Part shown: piece by piece, positions 18,245 to 64,000 of the stretch
How positions within the stretch are numbered: the stretch's first letter is position 1
Layout of the letters: every line of letters starts with the position of its first letter
Virus record (IMG/VR): IMGVR_UViG_3300045988_136451
Length of the DNA stretch: 64,000 bases
Source: a virus
Reading direction: 5' to 3' (one strand)
Translations under genes and position numbers: made by a program
The notes under the pieces: generated by a model
The model's input: the letters and a program-made list of their open reading frames with translations, nothing else
Told to the model about the DNA's origin: nothing
Database searches by the model: none

Positions 18245-19408
18245 CTATTCCTTGAACTCGCCAGCGCCAGCGTCGGCGGTCTTCAGGTAGCTTTCCGATT
18301 CTCCGATGACGACGGCCATGGTGTCGTCGTGCACGGCCTTGGCGAACTCCGGGTTGTCGCGCAGAAGGCCAACCATCTTCGCCTTGCCCTGCGCCTTCAC
18401 GAAGCCCTTCTCGCCCTCGGTGCCGTAGGACATCCACGAGCCGGACGTTTTCAGAACGCCGTAGGATACCGCCAAGTCCACGAGGCTGTCGGCGCTGTCA
18501 ACGCCGAACGGATGGTCTGGCGTTTCGGTGTAGTAGAACATGTACCCGGCCTCGCGGTACGGCGTTGCCAGCTTGTTCTTCCGGTTGCGCGTGATGATGC
18601 GCGTGCCGATCTTGACGCGCTCGCCGTGGATGTCGGCCCACTTGATGTCGTCGGCCTTGCCGGATGCCCTGATCTCCGTGATGGTCTTGCACATGTGCTT
18701 CAGGCCCTCTCCGCCGGAGATGATGAGGCCTCCGTGGGGCGACTTCAGGTTGATGCGGGCTTGGCCTATGTAGATGATGACGGGCAGCACAACGTCCGCA
18801 CCGGCGCGCTTGGCGTTGCTTATGCGGGTAAGCTCCGCGTTCACGCGGTTCACCATGCGCGTGATGACCCCGGCGCTACCGGCGACCTGCATGGCGTTAG
18901 CGTCGCCGCCGTCGCCCTTCTTGCCATCGACCTCAACGCCGCGCGCGACCGCGCCCAAGCTGTCAACCACGATCACGTCGAAGATGCCCTCGCGGATGAT
19001 CGCGCAGAGGCTGTTGGCGGCGTTCTCAACGGTGTCGGGGGTCGAGACCCACACGCGGTTCTTGCGCGGGTTGTCGTAGTCGAACTCTATCCCGTCGAAC
19101 TTCTCCAACCATTGCGGGGTTACGCTTCCCTCGATGTCCACGATGCACGCAAGCGCCTTCGGGTCGAACGACAGGAGACGGCCTATGGCGCAGTTGATGA
19201 GCGACGACTTGCCAGCCGAGTACTCGCCCATCACCATGTGCTGGTGCCCTCGCATCCACCCTCCGCCCAGCGCCGCATCGAGCGTGTCCGCGCCGGTCGA
19301 TATTACGCCGACCGAGTAGTCTATCTGCTGGGTCGGCACGAAGAACGAGCCGGGAGCCTCGTTCTTCAGAAGGTTGTCCAAACCTTTCTCCCTGTTCAGT
19401 CCCATCAC
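18245..19408 (-). CDS. recA: RecA/RadA-family recombinase
   Basis: LDAALGGGWMRG, then Walker A GEYSAGKSSL and Walker B VIVVDSLGA. Confidence 0.7.
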   Translation of the reverse strand: MMGLNREKGLDNLLKNEAPGSFFVPTQQIDYSVGVISTGADTLDAALGGGWMRGHQHMVMGEYSAGKSSLINCAIGRLLSFDPKALACIVDIEGSVTPQWLEKFDGIEFDYDNPRKNRVWVSTPDTVENAANSLCAIIREGIFDVIVVDSLGAVARGVEVDGKKGDGGDANAMQVAGSAGVITRMVNRVNAELTRISNAKRAGADVVLPVIIYIGQARINLKSPHGGLIISGGEGLKHMCKTITEIRASGKADDIKWADIHGERVKIGTRIITRNRKNKLATPYREAGYMFYYTETPDHPFGVDSADSLVDLAVSYGVLKTSGSWMSYGTEGEKGFVKAQGKAKMVGLLRDNPEFAKAVHDDTMAVVIGESESYLKTADAGAGEFKE

Positions 19409-22400
19409 ATTGCCTCTCTTTCTCTTTGCGGGACAACCGGCATGAAGTGCTCTAGCACGTAGTTGTCCTCGTCGTTTCTAAGCTGCTTCTTCACCTGCAT
19501 CAGGAAGTAGCAGTCCTGATCGCCGCGTATGTGGCGCTCGATCATCTCCCACATGTCCGTGAAGCACGTCACGTCGATCTGCGTGCCGTCCATGTCGCAT
19601 TTGAGGAACGCCATCGGCCTGCCCTTCTTGGTGACGATTCGCTTCACGTCCTCCAACAGCACGAGCACGTTTGCGCACGCCTCGTACGCAACGTCGTCAA
19701 GCTCGTCGGCGGAGCAGATCGAGGCCGCGTAAGGCTCGACGGCCCGCAGAACGTCCTCGTACGGGTCGAAGGTCAAGGGCATGCCTATGGCGCTCTTCTC
19801 CATCTCTATGATCTCGTCCTTGGTGAAGTCCGGCTGCTCCTGCGTGAACCGCACGGTCGAAGCGTCGCCGAACAGGTTGGCGCTCATGTCGTTGTTCTCG
19901 AACCTGTGCAGCAGGTCTTTCGCGTTGGGATGCCACTCGCGGAAGAACCTGTTCTTGACGAGGATGCGGACGACACCGTTGTTCGCGCCGCTGCGCGACT
20001 TGAAGTCCTCGAAGTCGGCGTAGGGCGCTCCCGCGAAGATGCTGCGCACGGCCTTCTCCCCTATGCCCTTCAGCGAGCCGATGCCGATGGCGATGGTGCG
20101 GTCGTCGAGGATGGCCCAGTCGTCCGATATGTTCGTCACCGACGGCATCGTGATCTGGAAGCCCTTCTTGCGGGCCTCGCGCATGTACTTCGGAAGCGCC
20201 TTCGGGTCAACCGTCTGGAAGCAGGCGCAGTAGAACTCGACGGGGTACATGAACTTCATCCACGCCGTCCAGAAGGTGATCTTCGCGTAGCTGTAGCTGT
20301 GGGCCTTGTTGAAGGAGTAGAGGCCCGATGCCTTGATCTGGTTGAAGATCACGGTCGCGTCCTCCGCCGATATGCCGCTGTGCCGCACGCACCCCTCAAC
20401 GAACTTCGGCTCCTCCGCCTCCATCTCGCGCAGCTTCTTCTTGCCGATGATCGAGCGCATGTGGTCTGCCTCCAAAGGCGTGTAGCCCGCCACCTGCTGG
20501 CATATCGCCATGGACTGCTCTTGGTAGACGATGACCCCGTACGTGTCCTTCAGGATAGGCTCTAGCTGCGGCACGACGTACGACACCTGCTCCCGCCCCA
20601 GCTTGCGGTTGATGAACACCTGCAACATCCCCGCGAGGATAACGCCGGGGCGGTAAAGCGCCACGATTGTTGACAAGTCCATGACGGAGCGCGGGGCGAG
20701 CTGCTGCGCGCAGGCCGTGATGTCCTTGCCGCCCATCTGGAAGATGCCCAGCGTGTCGCCCTCGTCGAACAGCCTCCACACCCCTTCGGGGGCCTGCGCG
20801 TCTTCGAGGGCGCGGAAGTCGATGCGCACGCCGTGGCGCTGCTCGACCATCGCCCGCGCGTTCGCGAGCGTGGACAGGTTGCGAAGCCCCAGAAGGTCGG
20901 CCTTCAGGAAGCCCAGCGCCTCGATTGCCACCTTGTCGAACTGCGCCACGATGTCGCCCGTCTTCAGCGACAGGCGCGTGGGCATCGCGCTCGAAAGCGG
21001 TATGGGGGAGACGACGTAGCCAGCCGCGTGCTGCCCCCACTGGCGCGGCACGCCGATGAGGCGCGAGACGTACTTGAAGACGTTGGGGAAGCGCTGCATC
21101 ATCGTGTCCAGCTCGCGGCGCTCCTTGTCGGACAGTATGTCGAGATGGTCGAGCCATTCCTTCGGGTTCTTCAGGGCCTTGTCGAACCGTTCCAAGGTCG
21201 CCTTGCAGCGCAGGGCCTCTTGGTGCGGAAGGCGGTAGTAGCGCGCCAAGTCCTCGAAGGCGTTCTTTATGCCGAACGTCCCGACGGTGCCCACCGCGCA
21301 CACGTGGTCTTTGCCGTACTTCTCGTTCAGGTAATCGACGACGCTGTGGCGACCGGCCACGTCGAAGTCGAGGTCGATGTCGGGAAGGCTGTCCAGCCGC
21401 CCTTCGTTGAGGAAGCGCGAGAAGATCAGGCCGCGCCCCATCGGGTCAACTTCGGTAATGCCGGTTGCCCAGCAGAGTATGGAGGCGGCGCACGACCCGC
21501 GCCCCGGCCCGACCTCCACGCCGTGCTCCTTCGCCCAGCGCGTGTAGTCCGAGACGATCAGGAAGTAGTCCGCCAGACCGTTGTCAACGATGATCGGGAA
21601 CTCGTTCTCCGCCACGTCCTTCAGGTACGGCACGAGCCGCGCCTTGTCGCCGCCCCTGTACTTGATCTTGTGGGGGTCGTCGTCGGGCAGCACCTCGCAC
21701 CCACCGGCCTTCTCGAACAGCCCCTTCGCCGTGAGGTACTTCAGGTACTCCCCGCTGTCGTCCCATCCCTCCGGCAGGGGGAACTTCGGAACCTTGTGGG
21801 AGCGGTCGAGGTCGTATTCCTCGACCATCGAGAGGAGGTGGTCTACGCCGTCGAAGCAGCGCTCCAAGTCCTCGTCGCCGATGTAGGCGAGGCGCTGGCG
21901 CACCTCGGCCTCGTCCATCATGTAGTAGTCCTGCTTCATGTGCATGTGCGTCTCGTCGTAATGCTTGCCCATGTTGCAGCCGAGCATGACGTTCTGCAAG
22001 TCGCAGTCCTGCGGACTGACGTAGTGGCTGTCGATTGCGTAGATCGTGCGGATGCCGTGCCGCTTCGCGAAGTCGAGCAGCCACATGTTGACGCTGCGCT
22101 GCTCCGGCTCGCTGTTCGTGTGAATCTCGATGAAGAACTCGTCGAAGATGGCCCGGAACCGCTCGGTGAACTCCAACGCCATCTTCTCGTCGTCGGCCTT
22201 CGCGGCCCTCGACAGGGCACCGGCGAGGCATGCGGAGCCGCATATAACGCCCTCGCGGCGCTCTCCCAAGTCCTCCCACAGCGCGTTGGTGTACGCGTCC
22301 TTCCCTTCCTCGTGCAGCCAAGCCTTCGACGAGATGTCCCAGAGGTTGTGAAGCCCCTCCAAGTTGCGCGCCCAAAGGGTCAGGTGGAAGCCCTTCTTGT

Positions 22401-22638
22401 TCGTGTTGTGGTACACGCCGTCCTTCAGGTACAGCTCGCTTCCGAGTATGGGCACGATGCCGTTGCGCTTCGCCGCCTCGAACATGGCGTAATGGCCCAC
22501 GCAATGGCCGTGGTCGGTTATCGCCTGATAGCGGCTCCCGACCTCGACCGCGCGCCTGCACATGTCCTCCGGGTCGGCGAGGCCGTCTAGGAAGCTGTAG
22601 TAGCTGTGCGCGTGAAGGTTCGCGAACTGATGAGGCAT
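19405..22638 (-). CDS. dnaE: DNA polymerase III alpha subunit (DnaE-type, N-terminal PHP domain)
   Basis: >1000 aa. PHP start MPHQFANLHAHSYYSFLDG is typical of DnaE. Start taken at the second Met (22638) behind a G8 SD-like run; the ORF track starts 21 nt upstream (MDRGGHG). Palindromic motif 22665-22680 upstream. Confidence 0.9.
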   Translation of the reverse strand: MPHQFANLHAHSYYSFLDGLADPEDMCRRAVEVGSRYQAITDHGHCVGHYAMFEAAKRNGIVPILGSELYLKDGVYHNTNKKGFHLTLWARNLEGLHNLWDISSKAWLHEEGKDAYTNALWEDLGERREGVICGSACLAGALSRAAKADDEKMALEFTERFRAIFDEFFIEIHTNSEPEQRSVNMWLLDFAKRHGIRTIYAIDSHYVSPQDCDLQNVMLGCNMGKHYDETHMHMKQDYYMMDEAEVRQRLAYIGDEDLERCFDGVDHLLSMVEEYDLDRSHKVPKFPLPEGWDDSGEYLKYLTAKGLFEKAGGCEVLPDDDPHKIKYRGGDKARLVPYLKDVAENEFPIIVDNGLADYFLIVSDYTRWAKEHGVEVGPGRGSCAASILCWATGITEVDPMGRGLIFSRFLNEGRLDSLPDIDLDFDVAGRHSVVDYLNEKYGKDHVCAVGTVGTFGIKNAFEDLARYYRLPHQEALRCKATLERFDKALKNPKEWLDHLDILSDKERRELDTMMQRFPNVFKYVSRLIGVPRQWGQHAAGYVVSPIPLSSAMPTRLSLKTGDIVAQFDKVAIEALGFLKADLLGLRNLSTLANARAMVEQRHGVRIDFRALEDAQAPEGVWRLFDEGDTLGIFQMGGKDITACAQQLAPRSVMDLSTIVALYRPGVILAGMLQVFINRKLGREQVSYVVPQLEPILKDTYGVIVYQEQSMAICQQVAGYTPLEADHMRSIIGKKKLREMEAEEPKFVEGCVRHSGISAEDATVIFNQIKASGLYSFNKAHSYSYAKITFWTAWMKFMYPVEFYCACFQTVDPKALPKYMREARKKGFQITMPSVTNISDDWAILDDRTIAIGIGSLKGIGEKAVRSIFAGAPYADFEDFKSRSGANNGVVRILVKNRFFREWHPNAKDLLHRFENNDMSANLFGDASTVRFTQEQPDFTKDEIIEMEKSAIGMPLTFDPYEDVLRAVEPYAASICSADELDDVAYEACANVLVLLEDVKRIVTKKGRPMAFLKCDMDGTQIDVTCFTDMWEMIERHIRGDQDCYFLMQVKKQLRNDEDNYVLEHFMPVVPQREREAM

Positions 22639-22664
22639 TCCGTGCCCCCCCCTATCCATGTCTC

Positions 22665-22680
22665 TCGATTATTTTATCGA
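22665..22680 (-). promoter_or_regulatory. AT-rich palindromic motif upstream of dnaE, overlapping the HNH gene stop
   Basis: TCGATAAAATAATCGA-GAGAC-ATG. The embedded TAAAAT lies 17 nt downstream of an AAGACG -35-like hexamer. Confidence 0.55.
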
Positions 22681-23171
22681 ACGTCCTTGTACGTCTTTCC
22701 ATCGCGCACCTTCTGCACCGTGCCGATGGACACTCCGAACTTTTCGGCAAGGGAGGCGAGCGTTCCGCCTCCCCTTATCTCTAAAACCTGCTCTCGCGTC
22801 AGCTTGCGCTTGTCATGATGCATGTAGTTGCCGTACGGCTCTAGCCCCTCGGCGGCGCGTCGTGCCGCATCGGCCCTGCGATGGCACGCAGTGCACATCC
22901 ACTCGACCTCCAACGGCTTCGCGTAATCGTCATGGTGCGCCTCTATGCGCTTCTCCGGCGCTGTCGCCCCGCATTTTGAGCAAACCTGCGGGTTGACCAA
23001 CACCCCGGCCTTTATGGCCTCATAAACGGCTCTCTGGGCATTCTGCTTAGTTGGGTTCTTTGAGCATGTTTTCAGCCTAGTCCCCAAAACTTTCTCCGGG
23101 TGTTCGAGCTTATACCTACGAACTCGCTCTTTGACCTTTTCTTTGTCAACTAGGTAATACTTGCCTTGCAT
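22674..23171 (-). CDS. HNH homing endonuclease with C-terminal HTH
   Basis: CSKCG...EAHHDDY...WMCTACH is an HNH/zinc motif; LASLAEKFGVSIGTVQKV looks like an HTH. Locally AT-rich codons. Own consensus promoter at 23209-23237. Free-standing between dnaE and ssb. Confidence 0.7.
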   Translation of the reverse strand: MQGKYYLVDKEKVKERVRRYKLEHPEKVLGTRLKTCSKNPTKQNAQRAVYEAIKAGVLVNPQVCSKCGATAPEKRIEAHHDDYAKPLEVEWMCTACHRRADAARRAAEGLEPYGNYMHHDKRKLTREQVLEIRGGGTLASLAEKFGVSIGTVQKVRDGKTYKDVR

Positions 23172-26413: not shown

Positions 26414-28759
26414 TTATCGGATGGTGCGCGGGTTGCCGTTGTCGTCCCTCATGAGGTCGATGAGGGCTTGGTACTTCAGCTCCCATCGCAGCTTGTAGCC
26501 CATCCTCCCGTAACGTCGGGTCTTCAGCGTGACGAGCTTCATCACGCTTATGTTCTCCTCCTCCTCGGTGCACCCCAGCGCCCAGATAACGTCCGCAAGC
26601 TGCTCGACAACCGACGAGTGCGCGATGTCCTGCGCGGTGCCTATGCCGTCCTTCGCGTTCTTAACGCCCTCTCGCGTCATCTGGTGGAGCAGCAGCACCG
26701 GCATCTTCTGGTTGTCCGAAGGCGACGCTATGAGGTTCTTCAGCGTGTAGATGCAGTCAGCCGTCTGCTCGTAAAGCGACTGAATCTTCGGGTTCTTCTT
26801 CACGAACTGAAGCTGGTCGATCACGACGAAGTTGCATCCGCACATCTTGGCGTTCTGGATGAGGGCGCTCGGCGTGCGCTCCGGCATGGGCGGCTGGTCG
26901 ATGACGAGCTTTCCGGGCAGGCCGCCTATCTCGTCGCGCGCCCTGTCGAGGGCCTGAACGTAGCGCGGCATCTCGATGCCCTTCAGGAACTTATCGACGG
27001 GAACCACGATCTGATCGCGGTTGACGTGCAGAAGCTCCGTGCGCCGCCCGATGTCGTAGGGGTCTAGCTCCAAGCTGGCGAAGTAGACGTTCCATCCTTG
27101 CCGCGCCGCCTCCAAGGCGGTCTTGGCGGCGAACCACGTGTTGTGCGTCACGATGTAATCGTCCGTCAGGTAAAGATGCTCCGGGTCGTCAACCATGATG
27201 CATTGCATCTCCGTGTCGAAGCCCAAGTCCTCGACATCGACTATCGAGACGTAGCGGTGAAGGAACTTGCGATTCGCAACGGCATCGTGCGCGCGCTCGC
27301 GACATTCGTGCTTGCCGGATGACGTGATGCTTTCGGCGGTCATCACCGACACAACCCATTCGTCCGACTTACCGGCACGGCGTTTCATTCGCGCCCGCGC
27401 GCACATTCCCAGCGAGCGGCACAACGACACGACATCATCAGCAAGCCTCTTTGAAGCCGTCGAGTAGGTCTTGCCTCCGTTGCCCATCATGCACCCGTCC
27501 GTGTCCATAAGGCCGCGAAGCAGGTCAAAACGCTGCTCTGCCGATGCTCCAAGGTAGTCGGCTGGAATGAACTTCTCATAAGATTTCACGTTCAGCCCAA
27601 GATCGACGACCGCGCTTGAAAGCGGGTTCATGTTCCACTTCGGCAGGTACGATATTCCATAAGAGCAGTTATCGGCGTTGACCTTCTTGACAGCGTAGTC
27701 TTCGCCCAGTCTCTCGCAAAGACTGTTCACCACATCGTCCTCGACGCTCGAAAACGCAAGCGAGCCTCCGGGAACCTGTGATAGGCATCCGTCGCCGATG
27801 AGCACGCCGAGCACGTAGGGGTCGATTGGAAGCTCCTTGCGCGACATCTCAACGGCATCATTGACCGGCACCCTCCAACGATACGCCTTGCCGCTCATCA
27901 GGCCACGCGCGATCATCTCGCCGAGCGTCATGGTGCGCTCCGAAACGCAAGGAATGCCGTTCGCCTTCGTCTTGTACGCCGTCGTCCACAAATGGTCGAT
28001 GCAGCAATCGGCATGTCGCCCGTCGGCAAGATGCACCCGGTACGCACGCTTTTTGCCCTGCGGGTACACTCCTATAACCCGTGCAAGCGTGCCTCGGCGC
28101 GTTCGCACCTTGTCGCCTACGCGAATCTCGCCCATCGGCTTGAACCCATGCTCCGTGAGAACCTTCGAGTAAAGCGGCTGGGCCTTGCCCTTGCCCGTCG
28201 GGGCGACGAGAACCGCAAGCTCGCCGGGCTTGATGCCGCCCGTCTCCACGTTCAGCTCCTCGAAGGGGTACGGCGCGCCGACCTCGGCCAGCTTCGCGTT
28301 CGCCATCTTCTTGTACAGCTCCATGCTCTCGCCGTCGCCGTACACGATCTTCTGCTGCCTCGGCGTTACGTTGTCAACGATCACGGACAGGGTGTCGCGC
28401 AGCATCTTCACCTTCTGCTCCGCGTCAAGCCCCATGTTCTCAACGCCCATGCGCAGCGCGTCGGTAAGCTGGAACTCGCAGTACTGGTCTTTGAGCTTCT
28501 TCGACAGGTACGACGGCGCGGCACCTGCCGCCCCCTGCGTCAGCGCGTCGTAGTCGGGGAACCGCTCGCGCAGCACGTCGAGCGTGGGCGCTCCCCTCAT
28601 GGCCGCGAAGTTCAGGAAGTAGTCGCTGGCGAAGCTGTACATCTCCGCCATCTTCGGGTCGGCGAACTGCGACGCGTCGATGCCCGATTGGTAGTAGACC
28701 ATGAGGGCGTTCGGGTCGGTCAAGGTCGCGGCGATCTCCGTCTCTACGTCGAGGGCCAT
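26414..28759 (-). CDS. dnaB: DnaB-family replicative helicase interrupted by an intein in the Walker A motif
   Basis: The track ORF (to 29395) carries a 210-aa Arg-rich bogus extension. True start MALDVE (TAATG overlap with the dnaC-like gene). Splicing out 27140-28183 restores LVAPTGKGK|TWFAAKTALEAA, a canonical A-x4-GKT P-loop. Downstream FVVIDQLQFV is a DnaB-type Walker B. Confidence 0.8.
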   Translation of the reverse strand: MALDVETEIAATLTDPNALMVYYQSGIDASQFADPKMAEMYSFASDYFLNFAAMRGAPTLDVLRERFPDYDALTQGAAGAAPSYLSKKLKDQYCEFQLTDALRMGVENMGLDAEQKVKMLRDTLSVIVDNVTPRQQKIVYGDGESMELYKKMANAKLAEVGAPYPFEELNVETGGIKPGELAVLVAPTGKGKAQPLYSKVLTEHGFKPMGEIRVGDKVRTRRGTLARVIGVYPQGKKRAYRVHLADGRHADCCIDHLWTTAYKTKANGIPCVSERTMTLGEMIARGLMSGKAYRWRVPVNDAVEMSRKELPIDPYVLGVLIGDGCLSQVPGGSLAFSSVEDDVVNSLCERLGEDYAVKKVNADNCSYGISYLPKWNMNPLSSAVVDLGLNVKSYEKFIPADYLGASAEQRFDLLRGLMDTDGCMMGNGGKTYSTASKRLADDVVSLCRSLGMCARARMKRRAGKSDEWVVSVMTAESITSSGKHECRERAHDAVANRKFLHRYVSIVDVEDLGFDTEMQCIMVDDPEHLYLTDDYIVTHNTWFAAKTALEAARQGWNVYFASLELDPYDIGRRTELLHVNRDQIVVPVDKFLKGIEMPRYVQALDRARDEIGGLPGKLVIDQPPMPERTPSALIQNAKMCGCNFVVIDQLQFVKKNPKIQSLYEQTADCIYTLKNLIASPSDNQKMPVLLLHQMTREGVKNAKDGIGTAQDIAHSSVVEQLADVIWALGCTEEEENISVMKLVTLKTRRYGRMGYKLRWELKYQALIDLMRDDNGNPRTIR
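27140..28183 (-). mobile_element. intein (Ala1-type) with LAGLIDADG homing endonuclease, inserted in helicase P-loop
   Basis: 348 aa. Block A AQPLYSKVLTEHG aligns to C-h-x-x-D-T-x-h-L-x-x-D-G with Ala at position 1. Two LAGLIDADG motifs (LGVLIGDGCL, LRGLMDTDGCM). C-terminal DDYIVTHN followed by the +1 nucleophile Thr. Confidence 0.7.
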
Positions 28760-31727: not shown

Positions 31728-33488
31728 TTAAAAGCCGAGTAAGTATTCCATGTCGTTCATCATATCATTCTCGCCAGCCGCTTCATACTCGCCTATGCCC
31801 ATCTCCTGCGCCAGCGCCTTGCGGCCCGCCATGGTCTCCTCTATGCGCTCCTCGATTGTGTCGCGCGTCACGAAGCGGTATATGGTCACGCAGTCGTGCT
31901 TGGAGCTGATGCGGTGGATGCGGTCGCTGCGCTGCTGGTAGCGCGAATGCAGCGGCGGCGTGTCGTAGTGGAGCAGGTAGCGCCCCTCCGGAAGGTCTAT
32001 GCCCTCGCGCCCAGCGTCGGACATGAGCATGAGGTTGTAGGTGCTCCCCTCTCGGAAAGACCGCTCGATCACGCCGCGCTGCGCGTCCGTCTGCCCTCCC
32101 ATGTACATGAGCGGGCGGTAGCGCTCCAAGTGCTTCGACAGCGGTATGAGGCAGTTGTGCGTGTGCTGGGCGAACACCACCATCTTCTCGCCGCCTCCCA
32201 TGATCTGGTCTACCAGCTCCTCGGTCGCCTTCAGCTTCTCGCTGTTCTTAGACCCCGCAAGCTCCGGCGCGTGGCGCTGCACTATCCGGCGAATCTCGCG
32301 CAGCTGCTCGTCCCAGAACGGGTTGTCGCCTTCGTAGCGCCACACGTCCTCCATCAGAAGAACCTCCGGCATCCTGCACACGCGCTGAAGCATGAGCATG
32401 AACAGCGAGCGCTGCTTCTCGTCCCGGTCTACGCTGCCGCCGTACGCGGCGATCTCGTCGTACAGGGCGCGCTCCGGCGGCGACAGCTCCAAGTCAAGCA
32501 CGATCTCCTGACGCTTGGGGAACTCCGCCGCTATCTCCGGGTTGGTCTTCTCCGCCATGAACACGCGGGGAGCCGAAAGCAGCCCCATAACGTCGAGGTT
32601 CTGGAAGCCGAGGTAGCGGTTCCACATGTCGCGCTCGCCGTTGCCGTACGTGAAGTAGTGCTCGAAGTCCTTCACGGTGCCGTAGATCGAGGCATCGAGG
32701 ATGCGCCATTCGTTGTAGTAGTCCTCCGGGCTTTTCTCCAACGGCGTGGCGGTCAGGCCGCACTTGAACCTGATGTCGAGCGTCTTTTCCAGCTTCTTGA
32801 ACTTCTGGTGGCGGGGCCGCGCTCGGCTCTTCAACCGCTGAACCTCGTCGTACACGAAGAAAAGGTGCTTCCCGCGCAGGGCGCGCTCTATGAAGTTCCA
32901 GTCCTTCGTGTTGGTTCGGTCGTAGTTGACGACCCATATGTCGGAATCGTCGGTGTTGTACCACGCTTGGCGCTTCGCGGGCTTCGCGTTGCGGTTGACC
33001 GTGCCGACCGTCAGGCTCGTCGCCTTCTCCAACCACGGCACCCACTGCTTGACGAGCGGGGCCGGGCAGAACACCACGATCTTATCGACGGTGCCACGGT
33101 CGAACTCGCGCACGGCGAGCATCGTCCCCATGGCCGTCTTCCCCGTCCCGCACGAGCATATGAGCATGGTGTTGGGAACTCCGTCGAGCGCGTGGCCGCA
33201 TCTGTTCTGAAACCTCTTCAGCTCGAACGGGAGCGTGAGGGACGGAGATTCGATGGGCGATTCGTCGCGCACCTGCCGCAAGCGCTCCGCCGCCCGCTCC
33301 GTGAACATGACCTCCATCGTCCTCGCCATGGTCTGGCACAGCTCGACGATGCGGTCGGAGTTCTTCAGCAGATGGTCGCGGGCGAGTATCCCGCTGTGGA
33401 CGAACGGCATCAGCGCCGCCTCGTCGCCGTTGATCTTGAACTGCCCTCGGAACTCCTCGGACAGGTCAACGCAGACCGTCTCTTTCAA
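31728..33488 (-). CDS. SNF2/SF2-family helicase
   Basis: Motifs in SF2 order: I ICSCGTGKT, II VYDEVQRL (DExx), III GLTATPLEKSPEDYYN, V LMLMSDAGREGIDL, VI QQRSDRIHRIS. TTG start after GGAGG. Confidence 0.75.
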   Translation of the reverse strand: MKETVCVDLSEEFRGQFKINGDEAALMPFVHSGILARDHLLKNSDRIVELCQTMARTMEVMFTERAAERLRQVRDESPIESPSLTLPFELKRFQNRCGHALDGVPNTMLICSCGTGKTAMGTMLAVREFDRGTVDKIVVFCPAPLVKQWVPWLEKATSLTVGTVNRNAKPAKRQAWYNTDDSDIWVVNYDRTNTKDWNFIERALRGKHLFFVYDEVQRLKSRARPRHQKFKKLEKTLDIRFKCGLTATPLEKSPEDYYNEWRILDASIYGTVKDFEHYFTYGNGERDMWNRYLGFQNLDVMGLLSAPRVFMAEKTNPEIAAEFPKRQEIVLDLELSPPERALYDEIAAYGGSVDRDEKQRSLFMLMLQRVCRMPEVLLMEDVWRYEGDNPFWDEQLREIRRIVQRHAPELAGSKNSEKLKATEELVDQIMGGGEKMVVFAQHTHNCLIPLSKHLERYRPLMYMGGQTDAQRGVIERSFREGSTYNLMLMSDAGREGIDLPEGRYLLHYDTPPLHSRYQQRSDRIHRISSKHDCVTIYRFVTRDTIEERIEETMAGRKALAQEMGIGEYEAAGENDMMNDMEYLLGF

Positions 33489-35526: not shown

Positions 35527-36894
35527 GCCGCGAGCGAAGACGTAGACCGCCTCCGATTCTCTCCACTTGCCGTTGACGTACACGCTCGCGAGGCCCTGAT
35601 GCCATCTCGCGCCGTTCGGAACGTCGTAGCGCCATATCAGGCCGCCGTAGTAATCGACGACCGCCTGAACGTCCGCGCCGTTGCGCATATGAACCGCGCG
35701 CCCCTTCGCGTCGTAGGAGCGCAGCGTGAACGTCTGGGAGGTGCGCGGCCTCTGCCGCTTCAAAGCCACCTCGACCGACTTGATTCCGGCCTGCTCGCTT
35801 CGGGCATCGGATGCCTTCCACGAGCGCACGAGGCCGTCAACGCTCCCCACAAGCTCGTAGCGCGCCACGGGGTAGGAGCCGTCTTCCCAGCCGGAGTAGT
35901 AGAACCTCACGGTCTCCCCGGCGCACAGAACCTCGTTCCGCGTTCCCCTGCGACCGATGCACCAGAGCTGCGTCGGGCCGTAGCTGGGTATCTCGAAGTA
36001 GGACACCGCGTCAGACCAAGCGACCTGCTTGCTCCACGCCTGACCGTCGTAGGTGCGGATGCCGAAGAACAGCTTGTCGCCCGTCTTGATGTCGAAGAAC
36101 GACGACGGCTGAACGCTGGCCGACGTGCTGCCGATGCCCTCGACCGCCCGCACGAACTTCGCGTGCTGCGCAACGGTGTCGGGGTTGCGAGCGCCCGACG
36201 GCACCGAATCGCCACGGTAGACGAACAGGTCGTACCCCTTCGCGCCGTTGCAGCGGTTCCACGACACCGCCACGGGCTGCGTGGCGGCTTGGATTATCTC
36301 GATCTTCGGAGGCTCGGCCTTGACATACGACGGGGTTGCGGGGCGCGGGTACGCGCCCTCGTGCCACGTGACGGTGTACATGCCGTCCTTGTTGTTCATG
36401 AACGCGCCGTCCTGCGGGCACGGCCTGCTGGCGTAGTAGCCTTGGCCGTAGCGCCCTTCCCAGTTCGTGATCTCGTTGTCCTCGAAGCTGCCCGTCCACG
36501 GGCGCACGATCATGGGGCATATCGTCAGGTTCTCGTCGTCGGTTCCTATGGGAACGTCCGCGTCGAAGACGGTGTAGGGGCCGTGCCACATGGTGCCGTC
36601 CCGGTCTCCGGCCCACGAGCCGTTAAGCCCCCAGTCGGCGTACTGCCCCCAGAACTTCCGCCCGCTCTTGATGGTCGCGCTCTGGTACACGCCGTTGACC
36701 CAGCACTGGTGCCCGATGGCGTAGCTGAAGAACGAGTTGTAGTACCTCATGCGAACCCAGCACTTTATGCGCACATGGGTGGAGCGCGCGGTGCGGCCCC
36801 ACGTCTCCACGGTGTAGCTGTACATGGTGTTGGGCTGTCCGTTGCTCTGCGTCCAGCCCTCTAGCGGCATGCCTTTGACGAACCATCCCATCAT
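35509..36894 (-). CDS. putative tail-associated (fibre/lectin-like) protein, Trp/Gly-rich
   Basis: 461 aa, W/Y/G-rich with no catalytic motifs. Lies in the structural block next to the fibres. Confidence 0.4.
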   Translation of the reverse strand: MMGWFVKGMPLEGWTQSNGQPNTMYSYTVETWGRTARSTHVRIKCWVRMRYYNSFFSYAIGHQCWVNGVYQSATIKSGRKFWGQYADWGLNGSWAGDRDGTMWHGPYTVFDADVPIGTDDENLTICPMIVRPWTGSFEDNEITNWEGRYGQGYYASRPCPQDGAFMNNKDGMYTVTWHEGAYPRPATPSYVKAEPPKIEIIQAATQPVAVSWNRCNGAKGYDLFVYRGDSVPSGARNPDTVAQHAKFVRAVEGIGSTSASVQPSSFFDIKTGDKLFFGIRTYDGQAWSKQVAWSDAVSYFEIPSYGPTQLWCIGRRGTRNEVLCAGETVRFYYSGWEDGSYPVARYELVGSVDGLVRSWKASDARSEQAGIKSVEVALKRQRPRTSQTFTLRSYDAKGRAVHMRNGADVQAVVDYYGGLIWRYDVPNGARWHQGLASVYVNGKWRESEAVYVFARGKWRTL

Positions 36895-37460
36895 CTCACC
36901 GCCATATCTTCATATCTCCAAACATATCCAGCAGCCGTATGATGTCCACGTTTCCCGCTGCATATTAGGTATATGTTTTGAACGGTCGTCGATACATTTC
37001 TCGCCGCATCCGCAATGGAAGAGAAACGACCGATTTCCTTGCCACTCAACGGGTCTATCTGAACAACCGCCCTGCCACGCTGCTCGGTTTTGCTCCTCCT
37101 CATGCGCTCTTTCGTCGGGGCGTAATTGATATTGTCGGATGCAGTGACCCATTCGAGATTCGACACTCGGTTATTCGACCTGTCGCAATCAATATGGTTT
37201 ATAAAGGGCTTGCCGTCATCGTTCTGAATGAATGCAGCCGCTACAAGACGATGGACAAGCGCATTCTCAACGTTCTTGTTTCGGGTCAGCCGAACCACCA
37301 TGTAGCCGTTGGACATGACCTTCTGCTTTAGCACAATTCCCGCATATTCACGAACCGTGCCGTTCCTGTACCTAACAATTCGGTCAAGACTTCGCACGCG
37401 TCCAAGATCACTCACCTGATAGCAGCCCTCGTAGCCCTTTATGTCGCGCCACTCTTCCAT
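36891..37460 (-). CDS. HNH homing endonuclease (NUMOD4 plus HNH_3 type)
   Basis: WRDIKGYEGCYQVSDLGRVRS (NUMOD4), then HRLVAAAF...INHIDCDRSNNRVSNLEWVTASDN (HNH_3). AT-rich codon island inside the structural operon. Confidence 0.75.
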   Translation of the reverse strand: MEEWRDIKGYEGCYQVSDLGRVRSLDRIVRYRNGTVREYAGIVLKQKVMSNGYMVVRLTRNKNVENALVHRLVAAAFIQNDDGKPFINHIDCDRSNNRVSNLEWVTASDNINYAPTKERMRRSKTEQRGRAVVQIDPLSGKEIGRFSSIADAARNVSTTVQNIYLICSGKRGHHTAAGYVWRYEDMAVR

Positions 37461-37472
37461 CGTATGCATCCT

Positions 37473-59741: not shown

Positions 59742-60317
59742 TTAGTATGTGATGCCGCCTGCGGTGTCGCGCTCGGCGACGGTGAGCGTCTGCACGAGGC
59801 GGCGGGTGTACTTGATCTCGATGTCCACGGTCATCTCCATGGTGCGGCTCTCGAACGTCTCCGGCTGGATGCAGTTCGTGATGACCGCGCCTTCGTAGGT
59901 GATGACCCTCCAAAGGTTGTCGCTCGCGCCGCTACCGGCCCGCTCGAACTTCTTCACGAGGATGCGGTTGCCCGCCTTGCGCTGCGCCTCGAACACCTCG
60001 TAGATGTTCACGAGGCGGTTGGCCTCCGTGGGGCCGCCGAGCACGTTGGTGTTCTCCAACGCCGTCGCGATGCCCTCCTTTCCCCAGAGCTGCCATACGC
60101 GGCAGCGGATGGTGCCGGAGCCTTGCACGACGGGCGGAACGATCTCGACGGGGCAGAACGAGCCTACCGGGATGATGTCAACGGCGCTCGTGACGGCGGT
60201 GCCGGGGGTGTCGGTCGCCTGCGCCATGAAGCGCATGGGCTTGGTGGAACCCCCTTCGTCGCCGATGGCGATGAACGTGTTGCCGCCGCCTGCGACGCGT
60301 ACTTGGGAATCAGGCAT
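59742..60317 (-). CDS. tail tube protein (tentative)
   Basis: 191 aa, immediately after the sheath gene and before the chaperones. RBS AAGGAG 8 nt. Confidence 0.5.
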   Translation of the reverse strand: MPDSQVRVAGGGNTFIAIGDEGGSTKPMRFMAQATDTPGTAVTSAVDIIPVGSFCPVEIVPPVVQGSGTIRCRVWQLWGKEGIATALENTNVLGGPTEANRLVNIYEVFEAQRKAGNRILVKKFERAGSGASDNLWRVITYEGAVITNCIQPETFESRTMEMTVDIEIKYTRRLVQTLTVAERDTAGGITY

Positions 60318-60330
60318 TTCTCACTCCTTC

Positions 60331-62262
60331 CTAGACTGCGGTGGTGCCGTTGATGGAGAACTTGATGTAGATGCGGTTGATGCCGTAGGTCGGCGTGTAC
60401 CCCAAGCTGATGTTCACCTGCGTGGGGTCGGTCGCATCCTGCTCCACCGACGGGTCGGTGTACTCGGTCAGGTACCCGTCGGTCTGCATGCGCGACAGGA
60501 GCGCGGCGGTGCTGGACTTGATGTCGAGGAGCACCTGCGCGGTGGCGACAGAGCCGATGAAGCCCGACGCGAACGCGCGGCGCAGCGACTTCACGATGTA
60601 GAGCTTGCACATCTGGATGTTCAGCTCGCGCTTGACGACGGACGCGGTGGACGTGGTGATTCCTTGGATGACCGTCATGGCCGCGTTGATGTAGTCGATG
60701 AACAGAAGGCCGTTGTTCACTTGGTTCGTCTTGACCGTGGTGGTGAACGTCTCGTTCGGGCCGTACAGCCCGAGCACCTTCTTGTGCGTGAGCGGGTTGT
60801 ACTGCGCCATGGATGACGCGAGACCGGCGACCGCCGCCGCGCCGTAGAAACCGGCGATTGCCTCGACCACGTTGGTCTGGCGGTTGCGGAACTGGAACGT
60901 CGCGGGCGAGACCAGCACGCAGTCCTCGCTCGCGATGGACTTCGCGTAGGCGATCATCTGGTCGGAGGTCACGGCCTCCTCGGTTCCGTCAGCGCCCATG
61001 AACGCTATGCGCTCGTCCGCGTTCTCCTTCATGGTGCGGATGTGCGCCTGCGCGGCGTTCCACACCTCCGGTGAGCCGGACACGGGGACAACGATGTCGA
61101 TTCCCGAGACCTTGGTAAGCTGCTCGAACGCGTCCTCGAACGACTGGACGGTGTAGGTCGCGGCGCTGCCGCCCTGCGTGGCCGGGTTGCACGCAGCCGC
61201 GTAGAAGCCCGACAGGCCGCACAGCGACGCGATGTAGATCGCGAGGGACAGCGGGGACTGCACGTTGCCCGCAGCGTCCCACGGCACGCCGTACACGTCG
61301 ATGCACTCGTTGTAGGACGCGAAGTACTGCGGTGCGGTGTAAGCGTCCCCCTTGTAGTTGTACGAAACGACAACGCGGTCGCCGCTGCGGATGCCGCAAT
61401 AGGCGTACGCGGCGTACATGTAGTTGCCCTTCGATTCGTCGAACGTCGGGATGCGGCTCGACGGCGTGCGCGATATGCGCCCCGTCTGGTAGTCCACAAC
61501 GAAGTCGATGCCCTCGACGTATCCGCCCTCGACCTGACCGCTGCCGTTGCCGTCCGGAGTGTCGCCGTAGGCGTTGCCGTCGGTCGCGCTGGACACGATG
61601 ACCACGGTGCTCTCGCCCGATTCGTCCTTCGACACGTAGGGATGGGAGAGCGTGTAGGCCGCCTCGCCGTTGAGCTGGACAGGCTCCGCCGTCGCCCAGT
61701 CGAACGATATGGACAGCTTGGTGTTGTTCGCCAGCGCCCCGCCGATCTTGGACGAGAACGTGCCCGTCTGGTAGTTGATGATGTAGTCGGTTCCCTCCAC
61801 GTAGTTCTTCGACTTGTCGTCCTTGACCACGACCGTACCGGCGATGACGAAGCCCTCGATGGGGTTGTTCTCGCCGTCGAAGAGGATGGAGAAGCTGGGC
61901 TGCGCGGAGAAATAGGTGTACTGCTTCTCCGTCACGGTATTCTTCGTGGTTGTGCTGCGCAGCAGCTTTCGCGCGATTGTCGCCTTCTGGTCTGCGCCCT
62001 GCACGACGGTGTAGTCCTGCTCGTTCACGAACTGAACGCCGCTGGACGCACTTGTGACGGTGTAGCTGTCGGCTATAACGCCCGCGTTGTTCAGCGGCAC
62101 AGCGGTCACGCCTTCGAGCGTGATCTGCTGCGTGGCCGTGCGGAAGCCGATTGCGGGGCCGACGAAAGCGACCACGGCGTTCCCACCCACTGTGGTATTC
62201 AGACGGGGGCCTTCTACTTCCTCCGTGTAGATACCCGGCAGCGAGTTGTTCAAATCAGCCAT
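60331..62262 (-). CDS. contractile tail sheath protein
   Basis: Trimmed to MADLNNSLPGIYTEEV (RBS AAGGAG). The N-terminal PG(I/V)Y(T/I)EE motif and ~640-aa size are typical of phage sheath proteins. Confidence 0.65.
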   Translation of the reverse strand: MADLNNSLPGIYTEEVEGPRLNTTVGGNAVVAFVGPAIGFRTATQQITLEGVTAVPLNNAGVIADSYTVTSASSGVQFVNEQDYTVVQGADQKATIARKLLRSTTTKNTVTEKQYTYFSAQPSFSILFDGENNPIEGFVIAGTVVVKDDKSKNYVEGTDYIINYQTGTFSSKIGGALANNTKLSISFDWATAEPVQLNGEAAYTLSHPYVSKDESGESTVVIVSSATDGNAYGDTPDGNGSGQVEGGYVEGIDFVVDYQTGRISRTPSSRIPTFDESKGNYMYAAYAYCGIRSGDRVVVSYNYKGDAYTAPQYFASYNECIDVYGVPWDAAGNVQSPLSLAIYIASLCGLSGFYAAACNPATQGGSAATYTVQSFEDAFEQLTKVSGIDIVVPVSGSPEVWNAAQAHIRTMKENADERIAFMGADGTEEAVTSDQMIAYAKSIASEDCVLVSPATFQFRNRQTNVVEAIAGFYGAAAVAGLASSMAQYNPLTHKKVLGLYGPNETFTTTVKTNQVNNGLLFIDYINAAMTVIQGITTSTASVVKRELNIQMCKLYIVKSLRRAFASGFIGSVATAQVLLDIKSSTAALLSRMQTDGYLTEYTDPSVEQDATDPTQVNISLGYTPTYGINRIYIKFSINGTTAV

Positions 62263-62336
62263 GGGTACTCTCCTTCGATTGCTCGACATTGACAATGACC
62301 CCATTTTAGACGAGAAAGATGCCCTCCGCCATGCCC

Positions 62337-63026
62337 TTAGATCGCAGGCTCGACGAACATGCCCTCCTCCGCCTGCTTCTCGCCCGTGATTATCACGTCA
62401 AGCTCGTCGGCGTCTATCATGAGATGCAGCTTGATCTTCTCGATGAACGTGGGGTTCACGCGGTCGATGTAGTAGAACTCGCCGCGCACCTTGAACGAGA
62501 ACTGCTTGAACACCGTCACCAAGTCGTCGTCCCACGGAGTGCCCTTGCTGTCGTTGTTCGTCGTGTTCGATAGCGTCGCCATGTTAGGCTCTATGTTCAC
62601 GTACGGGTTGTCCCGCAGGCACTGGCGGTACTTCGGGTCGATTCCGATTCCGCTCACGATGCAGTCGGCGAGGATGGCACCCTCGACGGGGGAGTTCGCG
62701 TACACGTCGATGGTCACCCTGCCGCTGAAAACGTAGGCCGCAACGTCAACCCTGCCGCCGGTGCTCTTGTCGGTCACCATGACCCACTCGTTCGGGGCGG
62801 CTGGCTGGAAGTCCTCGTTCACGTATCCCACGCGGACGTAGGGCCACGCCTCGGCCACGATGGGGTAGTCCGATTCGACCTTCAGGTCTTTGTAGCCGTG
62901 GACGGCGACCATCTCGGGAGATTGCAGGAACTTCCTGATGCTGTCGGTCGCAGCCGTAAGGCAGCTGTAGAAGTACCCCACGTGCTTCGGCTCGTGCCAT
63001 ACCATGTGCCCGTCGTTACTCATCAA
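62337..63026 (-). CDS. hypothetical virion protein (upstream of sheath)
   Basis: 229-aa ORF. Confidence 0.4.
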   Translation of the reverse strand: MMSNDGHMVWHEPKHVGYFYSCLTAATDSIRKFLQSPEMVAVHGYKDLKVESDYPIVAEAWPYVRVGYVNEDFQPAAPNEWVMVTDKSTGGRVDVAAYVFSGRVTIDVYANSPVEGAILADCIVSGIGIDPKYRQCLRDNPYVNIEPNMATLSNTTNNDSKGTPWDDDLVTVFKQFSFKVRGEFYYIDRVNPTFIEKIKLHLMIDADELDVIITGEKQAEEGMFVEPAI

Positions 63027-63990
63027 TCCACTCCATCATCCCGCCGACGAAGGCGTAGTCTATGTCCTCGCTGTGCATCGCTATCGCGTCGTCTATCGCG
63101 TCGGCGATGAACTGCACGGGGCCGTGGCCCGGATGCACCCAGCTCCTCGATTGGCGCGTCTCCGGCATAAGCTCGCCGTCCTGACCGCGCACCCAGTACG
63201 TCTTCTCGCCCTTGCGCCACTGGTTGATGTTCGTCACCTTGCGGAACACGAGCTGGCCGCCGATCACCATGGGGACGGTGTTGTGCGTGACTATGTAATC
63301 GTTCGTGACGTACAACCCGTCCGCACTATCGACGAGGATGCAACGGCACTCCTCGCGTCCGGAAAAGGAAACGCTCTTGAATCTCCTGCACCAACACTTT
63401 GCGCTCTGATGCGCAACGTTGTCAAGATAGCGCTTCAGCTTCTTTTCGTAAGGGGCGAGGAACGGCACAACGCCGTTGTCGAACCTCATCTCGACGATGT
63501 ACGCCACACCGTTTCGATATTTGCCGCTGCGCCTGTCCTCGTGAATATACGCATGGCCTCCGAGCGAAAGCGCTAGGCTCCGCACCTGCACCGCGAGGTC
63601 GCGGCACACCGTGGTGTACTGGCATATCGCACCGCGAGCGGCGCACGAGCCGTCCGTGTCCATGAGGCCCTGCAATAGAAGGACGCGATCTTCGACGCAC
63701 GAAAGCATGTACTCTTCTGGGATGGTCTTGCCGTATGCGTCATGCCCCCATAGTCCGAGCGACCTGAACGCATCTATGAGCGGCGATGTCGAATTGCCGC
63801 CGCGCCCCCAACGCGACGGCGCGGCATTGTAGCCGGGAGCGCCGCACGCCAACGCTATTCTAGCTCCATCTTCAGCGACCGCATGGGGGGTGACGCACTC
63901 CGGCACGAACCTCATGAACGTGTCGATGCCAGCCCCGTCATAACAGCAGAAGTACGGATACGGCCCCCGGAGGCATCCATCGCCTATCAT
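63016..63990 (-). CDS. C-terminal part of an intein-containing virion/packaging protein (gene continues beyond the window)
   Basis: The frame is open to the window edge. 63280-63990 is the intein C-terminal half (LAGLIDADG motifs MIGDGCL and LLQGLMDTDGS, terminal NDYIVTHN|T). 63016-63279 is the C-extein (TVPMVIGGQLVFRKV...). Confidence 0.55.
   Translation of the reverse strand: MIGDGCLRGPYPYFCCYDGAGIDTFMRFVPECVTPHAVAEDGARIALACGAPGYNAAPSRWGRGGNSTSPLIDAFRSLGLWGHDAYGKTIPEEYMLSCVEDRVLLLQGLMDTDGSCAARGAICQYTTVCRDLAVQVRSLALSLGGHAYIHEDRRSGKYRNGVAYIVEMRFDNGVVPFLAPYEKKLKRYLDNVAHQSAKCWCRRFKSVSFSGREECRCILVDSADGLYVTNDYIVTHNTVPMVIGGQLVFRKVTNINQWRKGEKTYWVRGQDGELMPETRQSRSWVHPGHGPVQFIADAIDDAIAMHSEDIDYAFVGGMMEWIDE
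63280..63990 (-). mobile_element. intein (partial; LAGLIDADG endonuclease plus C-terminal splicing block), related to the helicase intein
   Basis: C-terminal block LYVTNDYIVTHNT is near-identical to the helicase intein LYLTDDYIVTHNT. Truncated by the window edge. Confidence 0.6.
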
Positions 63991-64000
63991 CGCTCCGACA

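Follow-up and report, generated by a model that had tools for sequence, protein, structure and literature searches.

In the present study we analysed a stretch of viral DNA of 64,000 nucleotides (IMG/VR record IMGVR_UViG_3300045988_136451, referred to here as the window) and found that positions 27140 to 28183 of its minus strand very probably encode a class 3 intein that carries a single-chain homing endonuclease with two LAGLIDADG motifs and interrupts the P-loop of a DnaB-like replicative helicase. An earlier note, made from the sequence alone, had proposed an intein with a LAGLIDADG endonuclease at this very place, and its coordinates were exact to the base, the residues AQPLYSK...DDYIVTHN running from 28183 down to 27140. 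The window matched the genome of the cultured, isolated Eggerthella phage LE2-3 (MW679026.1; 111,961 bp; GC content 63%; host E. lenta DSM 2243) with an identity of 99.5-100%. Since 11 substitutions were noticed against MW679026.1 over the 4,001 positions from 60000 to 64000, and none at all in the helicase coding sequence, the window probably stems from a very close LE2-3 variant or from another assembly. In GenBank the product of the helicase gene, LE23_120, reads only 'DNA helicase' and no intein feature is annotated, while the exact 781-amino acid precursor was present on 656 contigs and intein-free helicase alleles on about 9. The gene is laid out as follows:

26414..28759, minus strand: coding sequence of the DnaB-like replicative helicase precursor, 781 amino acids plus stop, identical to LE23_120 / QXJ36720.1
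28184..28759, minus strand: N-extein of the helicase, 192 amino acids, closing with ...VLVAPTGKGK, the first half of Walker A; collinear with P0001, an allele that has no intein
27140..28183, minus strand: predicted class 3 intein with LAGLIDADG homing endonuclease, 348 amino acids (AQPLYSK...DDYIVTHN), drawn from a 1,044-bp indel against contigs L003 and L004, Pfam and NCBIfam matches, and AlphaFold and Foldseek
26417..27139, minus strand: C-extein of the helicase, 241 amino acids (TWFAAK...PRTIR), the remainder of the DnaB_C ATPase domain by open reading frame (ORF) translation and Pfam

The insert lies between the Lys and the Thr of the helicase Walker A motif (GKGK/T, the slash marking here and below a splice junction). 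Removal of the insert had been expected to restore this motif, and indeed ...VLVAPTGKGK then joins TWFAAK..., so that the predicted spliced helicase of 433 amino acids carries a re-formed APTGKGKT. The Pfam DnaB_C (PF03796) score accordingly rose from 41.4 bits with the insert, when only profile positions 33-251 were matched, to 63.2 bits (E 3.3e-17) after its removal, with a contiguous match over positions 3-251 of 255. The insert itself matched LAGLIDADG_3 (E 1.7e-9) and Hom_end in Pfam, as well as the intein parts of the NCBIfam models PRK07773 (E 3.9e-18), GyrA_w_intein and others. An AlphaFold2 model of the intein built from 41 sequences was of high quality (predicted local distance difference test, pLDDT, 91.3; predicted template-modelling score, pTM, 0.91), and when it was searched against the Protein Data Bank (PDB) with Foldseek the best matches were TliVMA, PI-SceI and PI-PfuI (E 1e-17 to 1e-11), further matches being mini-inteins, among them MchDnaB1 and Msm DnaBi1 of class 3, as well as I-DmoI. 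The model thus predicts a HINT fold for the insert. Its ORF is intact, with no frameshifts and no stops, and the GC content at third codon positions is about 0.73 in both inteins of LE2-3 (the second, in the gene LE23_82, is described below) as against 0.87-0.93 in their exteins, which is consistent with a foreign origin of both.

We then searched for homologues using the hypothetical spliced helicase protein as query. Thirty-five of the 36 homologues found, with identities ranging from 36 to 100%, were about 403-442 amino acids long and hence lack the insert, whereas the remaining one, P0005 (309 amino acids), is a fragment of the intein-bearing allele. One of them, P0001 (433 amino acids), matches the predicted ligated exteins at 100% identity and is encoded on the metagenomic contigs L003 and L004, which belong to phages about 99% identical to the window at the nucleotide level. 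Their helicase genes are without exactly 1,044 bp and otherwise show 5 synonymous differences over 1,302 nucleotides, the nearest of them 44 nucleotides from the junction. A second pair was noticed in a sister lineage, where the intein-bearing P0350 and the intein-free P0336 are 1 amino acid apart. Intein-free alleles, which the earlier note had suggested looking for at both insertion sites, were found at both: L003/L004 and P0001 for the helicase, and P0340 and P0037/L005 for LE23_82.

As described by Tori et al. (2010; PMC2807308), class 3 inteins have a non-nucleophilic residue 1, the covarying residues Trp B:12, Cys F:4 and Thr G:5 (the WCT triplet), and Ser or Thr at the +1 position, and their splicing depends on the F:4 Cys as the first nucleophile (PMC2807308). 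In rare cases the +1 residue of this class is a Cys. For class assignment both LE2-3 inteins were aligned to the prototype MP-Be intein, extracted from AY500153, and the key positions corresponded as follows:

Residue 1: Pro1 in MP-Be, Ala1 in the helicase intein, Ala1 in the LE23_82 intein
Block B His (B:10): His65 in MP-Be, His64 in the helicase intein, His64 in the LE23_82 intein
Block B Trp (B:12): Trp67 in MP-Be, Trp66 in the helicase intein, Trp66 in the LE23_82 intein
Block F Cys (F:4): Cys320 in MP-Be, Cys328 in the helicase intein, Cys338 in the LE23_82 intein
Block G Thr (G:5): Thr339 in MP-Be, Thr346 in the helicase intein, Thr356 in the LE23_82 intein
C-terminal His: His340 in MP-Be, His347 in the helicase intein, His357 in the LE23_82 intein
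C-terminal Asn: Asn341 in MP-Be, Asn348 in the helicase intein, Asn358 in the LE23_82 intein
+1 residue: Thr+1 in MP-Be, Thr+1 in the helicase intein, Thr+1 in the LE23_82 intein

An Ala first residue and a Thr at +1 had been read earlier as signs of a non-canonical splicing route; both residues were observed in both inteins, and the helicase intein must therefore use such a route. As the WCT triplet and Thr+1 are present in each, both LE2-3 inteins are, judged by their residues, class 3. The Thr+1 of the helicase intein doubles as the Thr of Walker A. The splicing blocks and the endonuclease motifs of the helicase intein are located as follows:

28145..28183, minus strand: splicing block A by alignment; residue 1 is Ala (codon 28181-28183), not a nucleophile
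27980..28021, minus strand: splicing block B (GRHADCCIDHLWTT) by alignment to MP-Be, with His64 at B:10 (27992-27994) and Trp66 at B:12 (27986-27988)
27782..27811, minus strand: first LAGLIDADG motif (LGVLIGDGCL) by Pfam and alignment, with catalytic Asp131
27488..27523, minus strand: second LAGLIDADG motif (LLRGLMDTDGCM, including LMDTD229G) by Pfam and alignment, with catalytic Asp229
27167..27211, minus strand: splicing block F (EMQCIMVDDPEHLYL), with Cys328 at F:4 (27200-27202), aligned to the essential Cys320 of MP-Be and the predicted first nucleophile
27137..27157, minus strand: splicing block G (YIVTHN) and codon +1 by alignment, with Thr346 at G:5, His347, Asn348 and Thr+1 (27137-27139)

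Just upstream of the block B His, at residues 60-61 of the helicase intein (27995-28006, minus strand), we also noticed a Cys/Cys-Cys in the context C-C-x-[ED]-H-L-W. A Cys at this place occurs in 103 of 118 aligned family members, and Cys-Cys in 76 of the 118, while MP-Be is without it. By analogy with what has been reported for Msm DnaBi1 (PMC6195587), this upstream Cys might form a redox or metal switch together with the catalytic Cys of block F.

A search with the helicase intein alone returned 482 proteins at E <= 1e-10, and the best 120 were inspected. In 113 of these 120 we observed a full-length intein with a Walker-A-like junction ([GSA][KR]/[TS]) and a ...THN end, most of them starting with AQPL; among the 113, Ala1 was present in 102, Thr+1 in 104 and the exact GK/T context in 84. 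Their host proteins include PhoH, IstB/DnaC-like loaders, terminases, SNF2, RecA and other AAA proteins. In the alignment of 118 sequences His B:10, Cys F:4, Thr G:5 and the terminal His-Asn were each present in all 118, Trp B:12 in 113 and Ala1 in 106, the first LAGLIDADG Asp was present in 118 and the second in 117, and the [FY]IVTHN/T end was conserved across the whole family. In IMG/VR, a scan with the helicase intein yielded a single identical locus, together with 35 relatives at about 29%. The GK/T position is a 'classic' P-loop insertion (PMC5050341), and a class 3 intein occupies the P-loop of mycobacterial DnaB too (PMC6195587). The helicase intein is thus a member of a large and well-characterised family that targets the P-loops of ATPases. 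Our literature search found no mention of inteins in Eggerthella phages.

Selection on the helicase intein was assessed by comparing it with the allelic intein of the sister lineage L010, to which it is 74.7% identical in amino acids, the exteins being 85% and 95% identical. The proportions of non-synonymous and synonymous differences (pN/pS) were 0.159/0.842 for the whole intein, 0.203/0.796 for the endonuclease domain and 0.021/1.04 for the C-terminal splicing region, and all key residues were kept between the two. Synonymous divergence was larger in the intein (pS 0.84, saturated) than in the exteins (pS 0.41), and for this reason the two allelic inteins probably parted before their host genes did, or were gained separately.

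Several points nevertheless weigh against taking the element to be an active, homing intein. Splicing itself, the block F branched intermediate and the cleavage of DNA are steps that we infer for the helicase intein, and the WCT motif alone is no proof of activity, since grafting it onto a class 1 intein was insufficient for splicing (PMC7664689). The intein-free alleles may represent the ancestral state or precise losses, and outside the LE2-3 phage clade no donor intein above 75% identity is known. Furthermore, 15 of the 16 distinct amino acid changes among nine near-identical variants fell inside the intein, which makes up 45% of the length (binomial p = 5e-5); they include C231R and V127M beside the LAGLIDADG motifs, with the catalytic residues untouched. 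Such intein-biased variation could reflect weaker constraint or an early decay of the endonuclease, the intein being nearly fixed.

The main rival reading builds on this last point, and we consider it unlikely though by no means negligible: the intein would splice, its endonuclease would be inactive or decaying, and the locus would stand at a late stage of the homing cycle with vertical inheritance only. The intein-bearing allele dominates public data (656 against about 9 contigs), so few homing targets would be left; 11 of the variant changes and a one-residue insertion fall within the endonuclease domain (residues 106-309); and in comparison with the sister allele no other part is less conserved than this domain (69.6%). 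Against it, both catalytic LAGLIDADG Asp residues are retained and hardly vary across the family, a pN/pS of about 0.25 points to long-term purifying selection on the endonuclease domain, no frameshifts or stops have accumulated, and empty alleles with an unchanged target still circulate.

Far less probable is a class 2 mechanism, in which the +1 residue attacks the N-terminal junction directly and no block F nucleophile is used. Residue 1 is Ala here as it is in the archaeal KlbA inteins (PMC2807308), and the label 'Ala1-type' of the earlier note holds as a description. As a statement of the KlbA route it does not hold: in KlbA inteins the WCT triplet is missing and F:4 is Asp (Asp147 in Mja KlbA; PMC2807308), whereas the LE2-3 intein has Trp at B:12, Cys at F:4 and Thr at G:5 together with Thr+1, which is the class 3 set, and the class 2 mechanism was rejected on these residues.

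Equally hard to sustain is the proposal that the insert is a native or a degenerate, non-splicing domain, in other words an intein pseudogene like Arth_1007, the 781-amino acid protein working or idling unspliced. Intein pseudogenes of this class do exist (PMC3196547) and the GenBank record annotates no intein, but the insert splits Walker A exactly at Lys/Thr, homologues at 36-100% identity are without it, and the catalytic residues are all intact and under purifying selection in a phage that is viable and abundant; with a viable phage and 656 contigs bearing the precursor, a permanently split P-loop is difficult to reconcile. A native helicase domain, which the earlier note had named as the finding that would overturn it, was checked against the homologues: the insert is discrete, and the intein-free alleles at both sites, along with the split Walker A, exclude such a domain.

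For the class 3 intein, which we prefer, a course of events can be proposed whose protein-level steps are borrowed from the established class 3 pathway. The thiol of Cys328 (F:4), aided by block B His64 and Trp66, would attack the bond between Lys(-1) and Ala1 to give a thioester-linked block F branched intermediate; the N-extein would then be transferred to the hydroxyl of Thr+1; cyclisation of Asn348 would free the intein; and an O-to-N acyl shift would make the Lys-Thr bond, giving the 433-amino acid helicase with an intact P-loop. At the DNA level, the freed intein would cleave intein-less helicase alleles of co-infecting relatives at the site coding for GK/T, and recombinational repair would then copy the intein into the cut allele.

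A second, truncated and related intein at the window edge had also been reported, and it was indeed present, ending NDYIVTHN/T at 63280 and matching LAGLIDADG_3 (E 3.4e-7):

63280..64000, minus strand: second intein, class 3 by its residues, the C-terminal 240 of 358 amino acids, cut by the window edge, with both LAGLIDADG motifs (AMIGDGCL, LLQGLMDTDGSC), ECRCILVD (block F) and YIVTHN (block G); LAGLIDADG_3 match
63016..63279, minus strand: C-extein (87 amino acids, TVPMVIGG...EWIDE) and stop of LE23_82, labelled 'PhoH family protein' in GenBank

The N-terminal 118 amino acids of this intein and its N-extein were read from MW679026.1, about 99.7% identical, and not from the window. LE23_82 encodes 539 amino acids with the junctions ...FPMKSLYGK/AQPLSEP...NDYIVTHN/TVPMVIGG..., the intein measuring 358 amino acids and the spliced protein 181, and the spliced protein matches phrog_2819 (annotated as of unknown function) contiguously across the junction. 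The gene sits in the head-tail module, between the major capsid and the tail sheath genes. The second intein had been assigned to a structural or packaging gene; its host, the 181-amino acid phrog_2819 protein, is not recognisable as either. No PhoH domain (PF02562) was detected at E <= 1 in the LE23_82 precursor or in the spliced product, and the GenBank label is most likely an artefact of the similarity of this intein to intein-bearing PhoH proteins, since many PhoH proteins carry related inteins. The extein family was identified neither by Pfam (E <= 1) nor by a PDB profile search, nor by Foldseek with an AlphaFold model, whose confidence was low (pLDDT 63.8). The insertion site shares G-K/T with P-loops, yet it is not a Walker A motif because the residue seven positions upstream is Met and not the invariant Gly.

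Turning to the alleles at this site, P0340 is an intein-free homologue corresponding exactly to spliced LE23_82 with unchanged flanks. In another intein-free allele, P0037/L005 (98% amino acid identity), a comparison of the junction in L005:98-643 with L002:4366-5985 placed 9 of the 14 nucleotide differences at -4 to +23, among them a change of Thr+1 to Val, and this clustering suggests a cleavage-resistant target or co-conversion of the flanks. A distant metagenomic homologue of LE23_82, P0199 (550 amino acids; hhalign probability 97.6%, spanning the junction), has a class 3 intein with LAGLIDADG motifs at the equivalent ...EGK/T, and therefore the insertion point recurs in this protein family. 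With the 240 amino acids in the window as query 9,141 relatives of the second intein were retrieved, none of them close, the best identity at full coverage being about 40%. The second intein is an anciently diverged member of the same family, seated at a P-loop-like LYGK/T of a non-ATPase protein.

The earlier note had further argued that the two inteins of LE2-3 point to recent intra-genome spread. Both start with AQPL, end with [DN]DYIVTHN/T, follow G-K and share a third-position GC content of about 0.73. Their amino acid identity, however, is only 33-37%, which does not support a recent spread between them, their DNA similarity is confined to about 60 nucleotides and about 33 nucleotides at the termini, and the terminal motifs that they share are family-wide. 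The LE23_82 intein ranks 107th of 117 among the relatives of the helicase intein, which is closer to inteins in loader-protein P-loops of other phages (46-48%, the nearest relatives outside the clade) and to an intein in a SNF2 gene of the sister phage (58%). When the 60-nucleotide target sites of both inteins were reconstructed they shared 19 of 60 positions, so they do not represent one common target. That the two are recent copies of each other is hence very improbable, and we rejected it on the low identity and the closer relatives elsewhere.

Broader movement of inteins between non-allelic genes has support. The loaders just mentioned are homologues of LE23_119, the gene just upstream of the helicase. 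In the sister phage L010 (contig JGI 3300076584) we found a 344-amino acid class 3 intein in a SNF2 P-loop (CSCGTGK/AQPLYSK...YIVTHN/TAMG; L010:4279-7092), and no non-allelic relative is closer to the LE2-3 helicase intein, the identity being the above 58% overall and 79.5% over the first 75 residues. Over the first 205 and the last 110 nucleotides the SNF2 intein is 79.0% and 87.3% identical to the LE2-3 helicase intein, against 72.7% and 77.3% for the allelic helicase intein of the same L010, and recombination among the inteins of this clade may be taking place. In the window the corresponding SNF2 site is empty:

33120..33155, minus strand: empty SNF2-helicase P-loop (ICSCGTGK/TAMGT, junction 33138/33137), occupied in L010

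It is conceivable, and we put it forward tentatively as somewhat less likely than its contrary, that one P-loop-homing class 3 lineage hops ectopically among genes in the Eggerthella phage clade, taking in the SNF2 gene, the DnaB-like helicase, the loaders and the GK/T site in the head-tail module.

Further endonuclease or endonuclease-like genes were noticed in the window and in the sister phage. A free-standing HNH homing-endonuclease gene encoding 192 amino acids lies at 36891-37469 on the minus strand (NUMOD4 E 2.9e-16, HNH_3 E 6.8e-9) and is missing, as a clean indel, from the about 99% identical contig L003. Between the DnaJ-module and the DNA polymerase III alpha genes, at 22674-23171 on the minus strand, an ORF of 165 amino acids shows HNH-like Cys/His motifs (CSKCG...HHDDY...CTACHRR) and gave no match in Pfam; its region is absent from L003, and in L004 part of it is replaced. 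The gene for DNA polymerase III alpha is itself intact in the window (19405-22659; 1,084 amino acids), and in L010 (L010:15494-19718) it is split into ORFs of 459 and 657 amino acids by a GIY-YIG endonuclease gene.

These findings leave the understanding of intein mechanism unchanged; their practical consequences are small but real. The record MW679026.1 needs correction, as LE23_120 is without an intein annotation and LE23_82 is mislabelled PhoH, and any modelling or expression of these two proteins needs the spliced sequences of 433 and 181 amino acids. An Eggerthella (Coriobacteriia) gut phage is added to the hosts of class 3 P-loop inteins, and the locus fits the proposed phage reservoir of class 3 inteins. 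The matched natural alleles with and without the intein, identical in their flanks, are ideal substrates for homing assays, and the P0037/L005 allele, in which 9 substitutions are clustered and the +1 nucleophile is lost, is a candidate immune site for the second intein. If ectopic hopping is true, the clade would offer a natural system for intein homing, ectopic transposition and target-site immunity in human-gut phages, because exact plus and minus alleles exist at both window sites and the SNF2 site is filled in the sister phage and empty here.

Among known systems the LE2-3 helicase intein resembles MP-Be, the 'DnaB' intein of mycobacteriophage Bethlehem (PMC2807308), with which it shares the non-nucleophilic residue 1, the WCT triplet, His B:10, the terminal His-Asn, Thr+1, a LAGLIDADG endonuclease between blocks B and F, a similar length (341 and 348 amino acids, respectively) and a phage ATPase as host. 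The two differ in sequence, being 27-31% identical, and MP-Be starts with Pro after Gln whereas the LE2-3 intein starts with Ala after the GK of Walker A. Despite its historical 'DnaB' name, MP-Be lies in AY500153 in gp11, an ORF of 903 amino acids that adjoins the portal gene. A terminase intein of Bethlehem, TerL1-c, was placed by Kelley et al. in gp10 (their numbering) at a site outside the P-loop, and we infer that TerL1-c is the MP-Be intein. Bethlehem gp52 was rejected as the location of the prototype, as its intein starts with Cys and resides in a phosphoesterase.

PI-SceI, TliVMA and PI-PfuI resemble the LE2-3 intein in their two-domain HINT and LAGLIDADG fold (template-modelling scores 0.6-0.7), but they have Cys1, follow the class 1 pathway, carry Asp at F:4 and are 15-20% identical. 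Msm DnaBi1 (PDB 6BS8) and MchDnaB1 (PDB 6RIX) are likewise class 3 inteins of the DnaB P-loop (PMC6195587, PMC7664689), in which the P-loop Ser/Thr at +1 doubles as the splicing nucleophile; they differ in being mini-inteins without an endonuclease, in bacterial chromosomal DnaB, and their similarity is weak (E 1e-3 to 2e-4). The same Walker A position is occupied in the helicase of Enterococcus phage 156 (GGGK/ALVD...ATHN/T) and in the DnaB of a Stx2a-converting phage (GMGK/AMAL...YIVTHN/T), both inteins having Ala1, the WCT triplet and LAGLIDADG motifs; they are 31-35% identical to the LE2-3 intein, and their records too are without intein annotation. Finally, the metagenomic GK/AQPL...THN/T inteins in the P-loops of PhoH, DnaC/IstB-like loaders, terminases, SNF2, RecA and AAA proteins have an architecture and a junction context identical to those of the LE2-3 helicase intein, though none outside the LE2-3 clade exceeds 50% identity, and as they reside in different host genes they are non-allelic to it.

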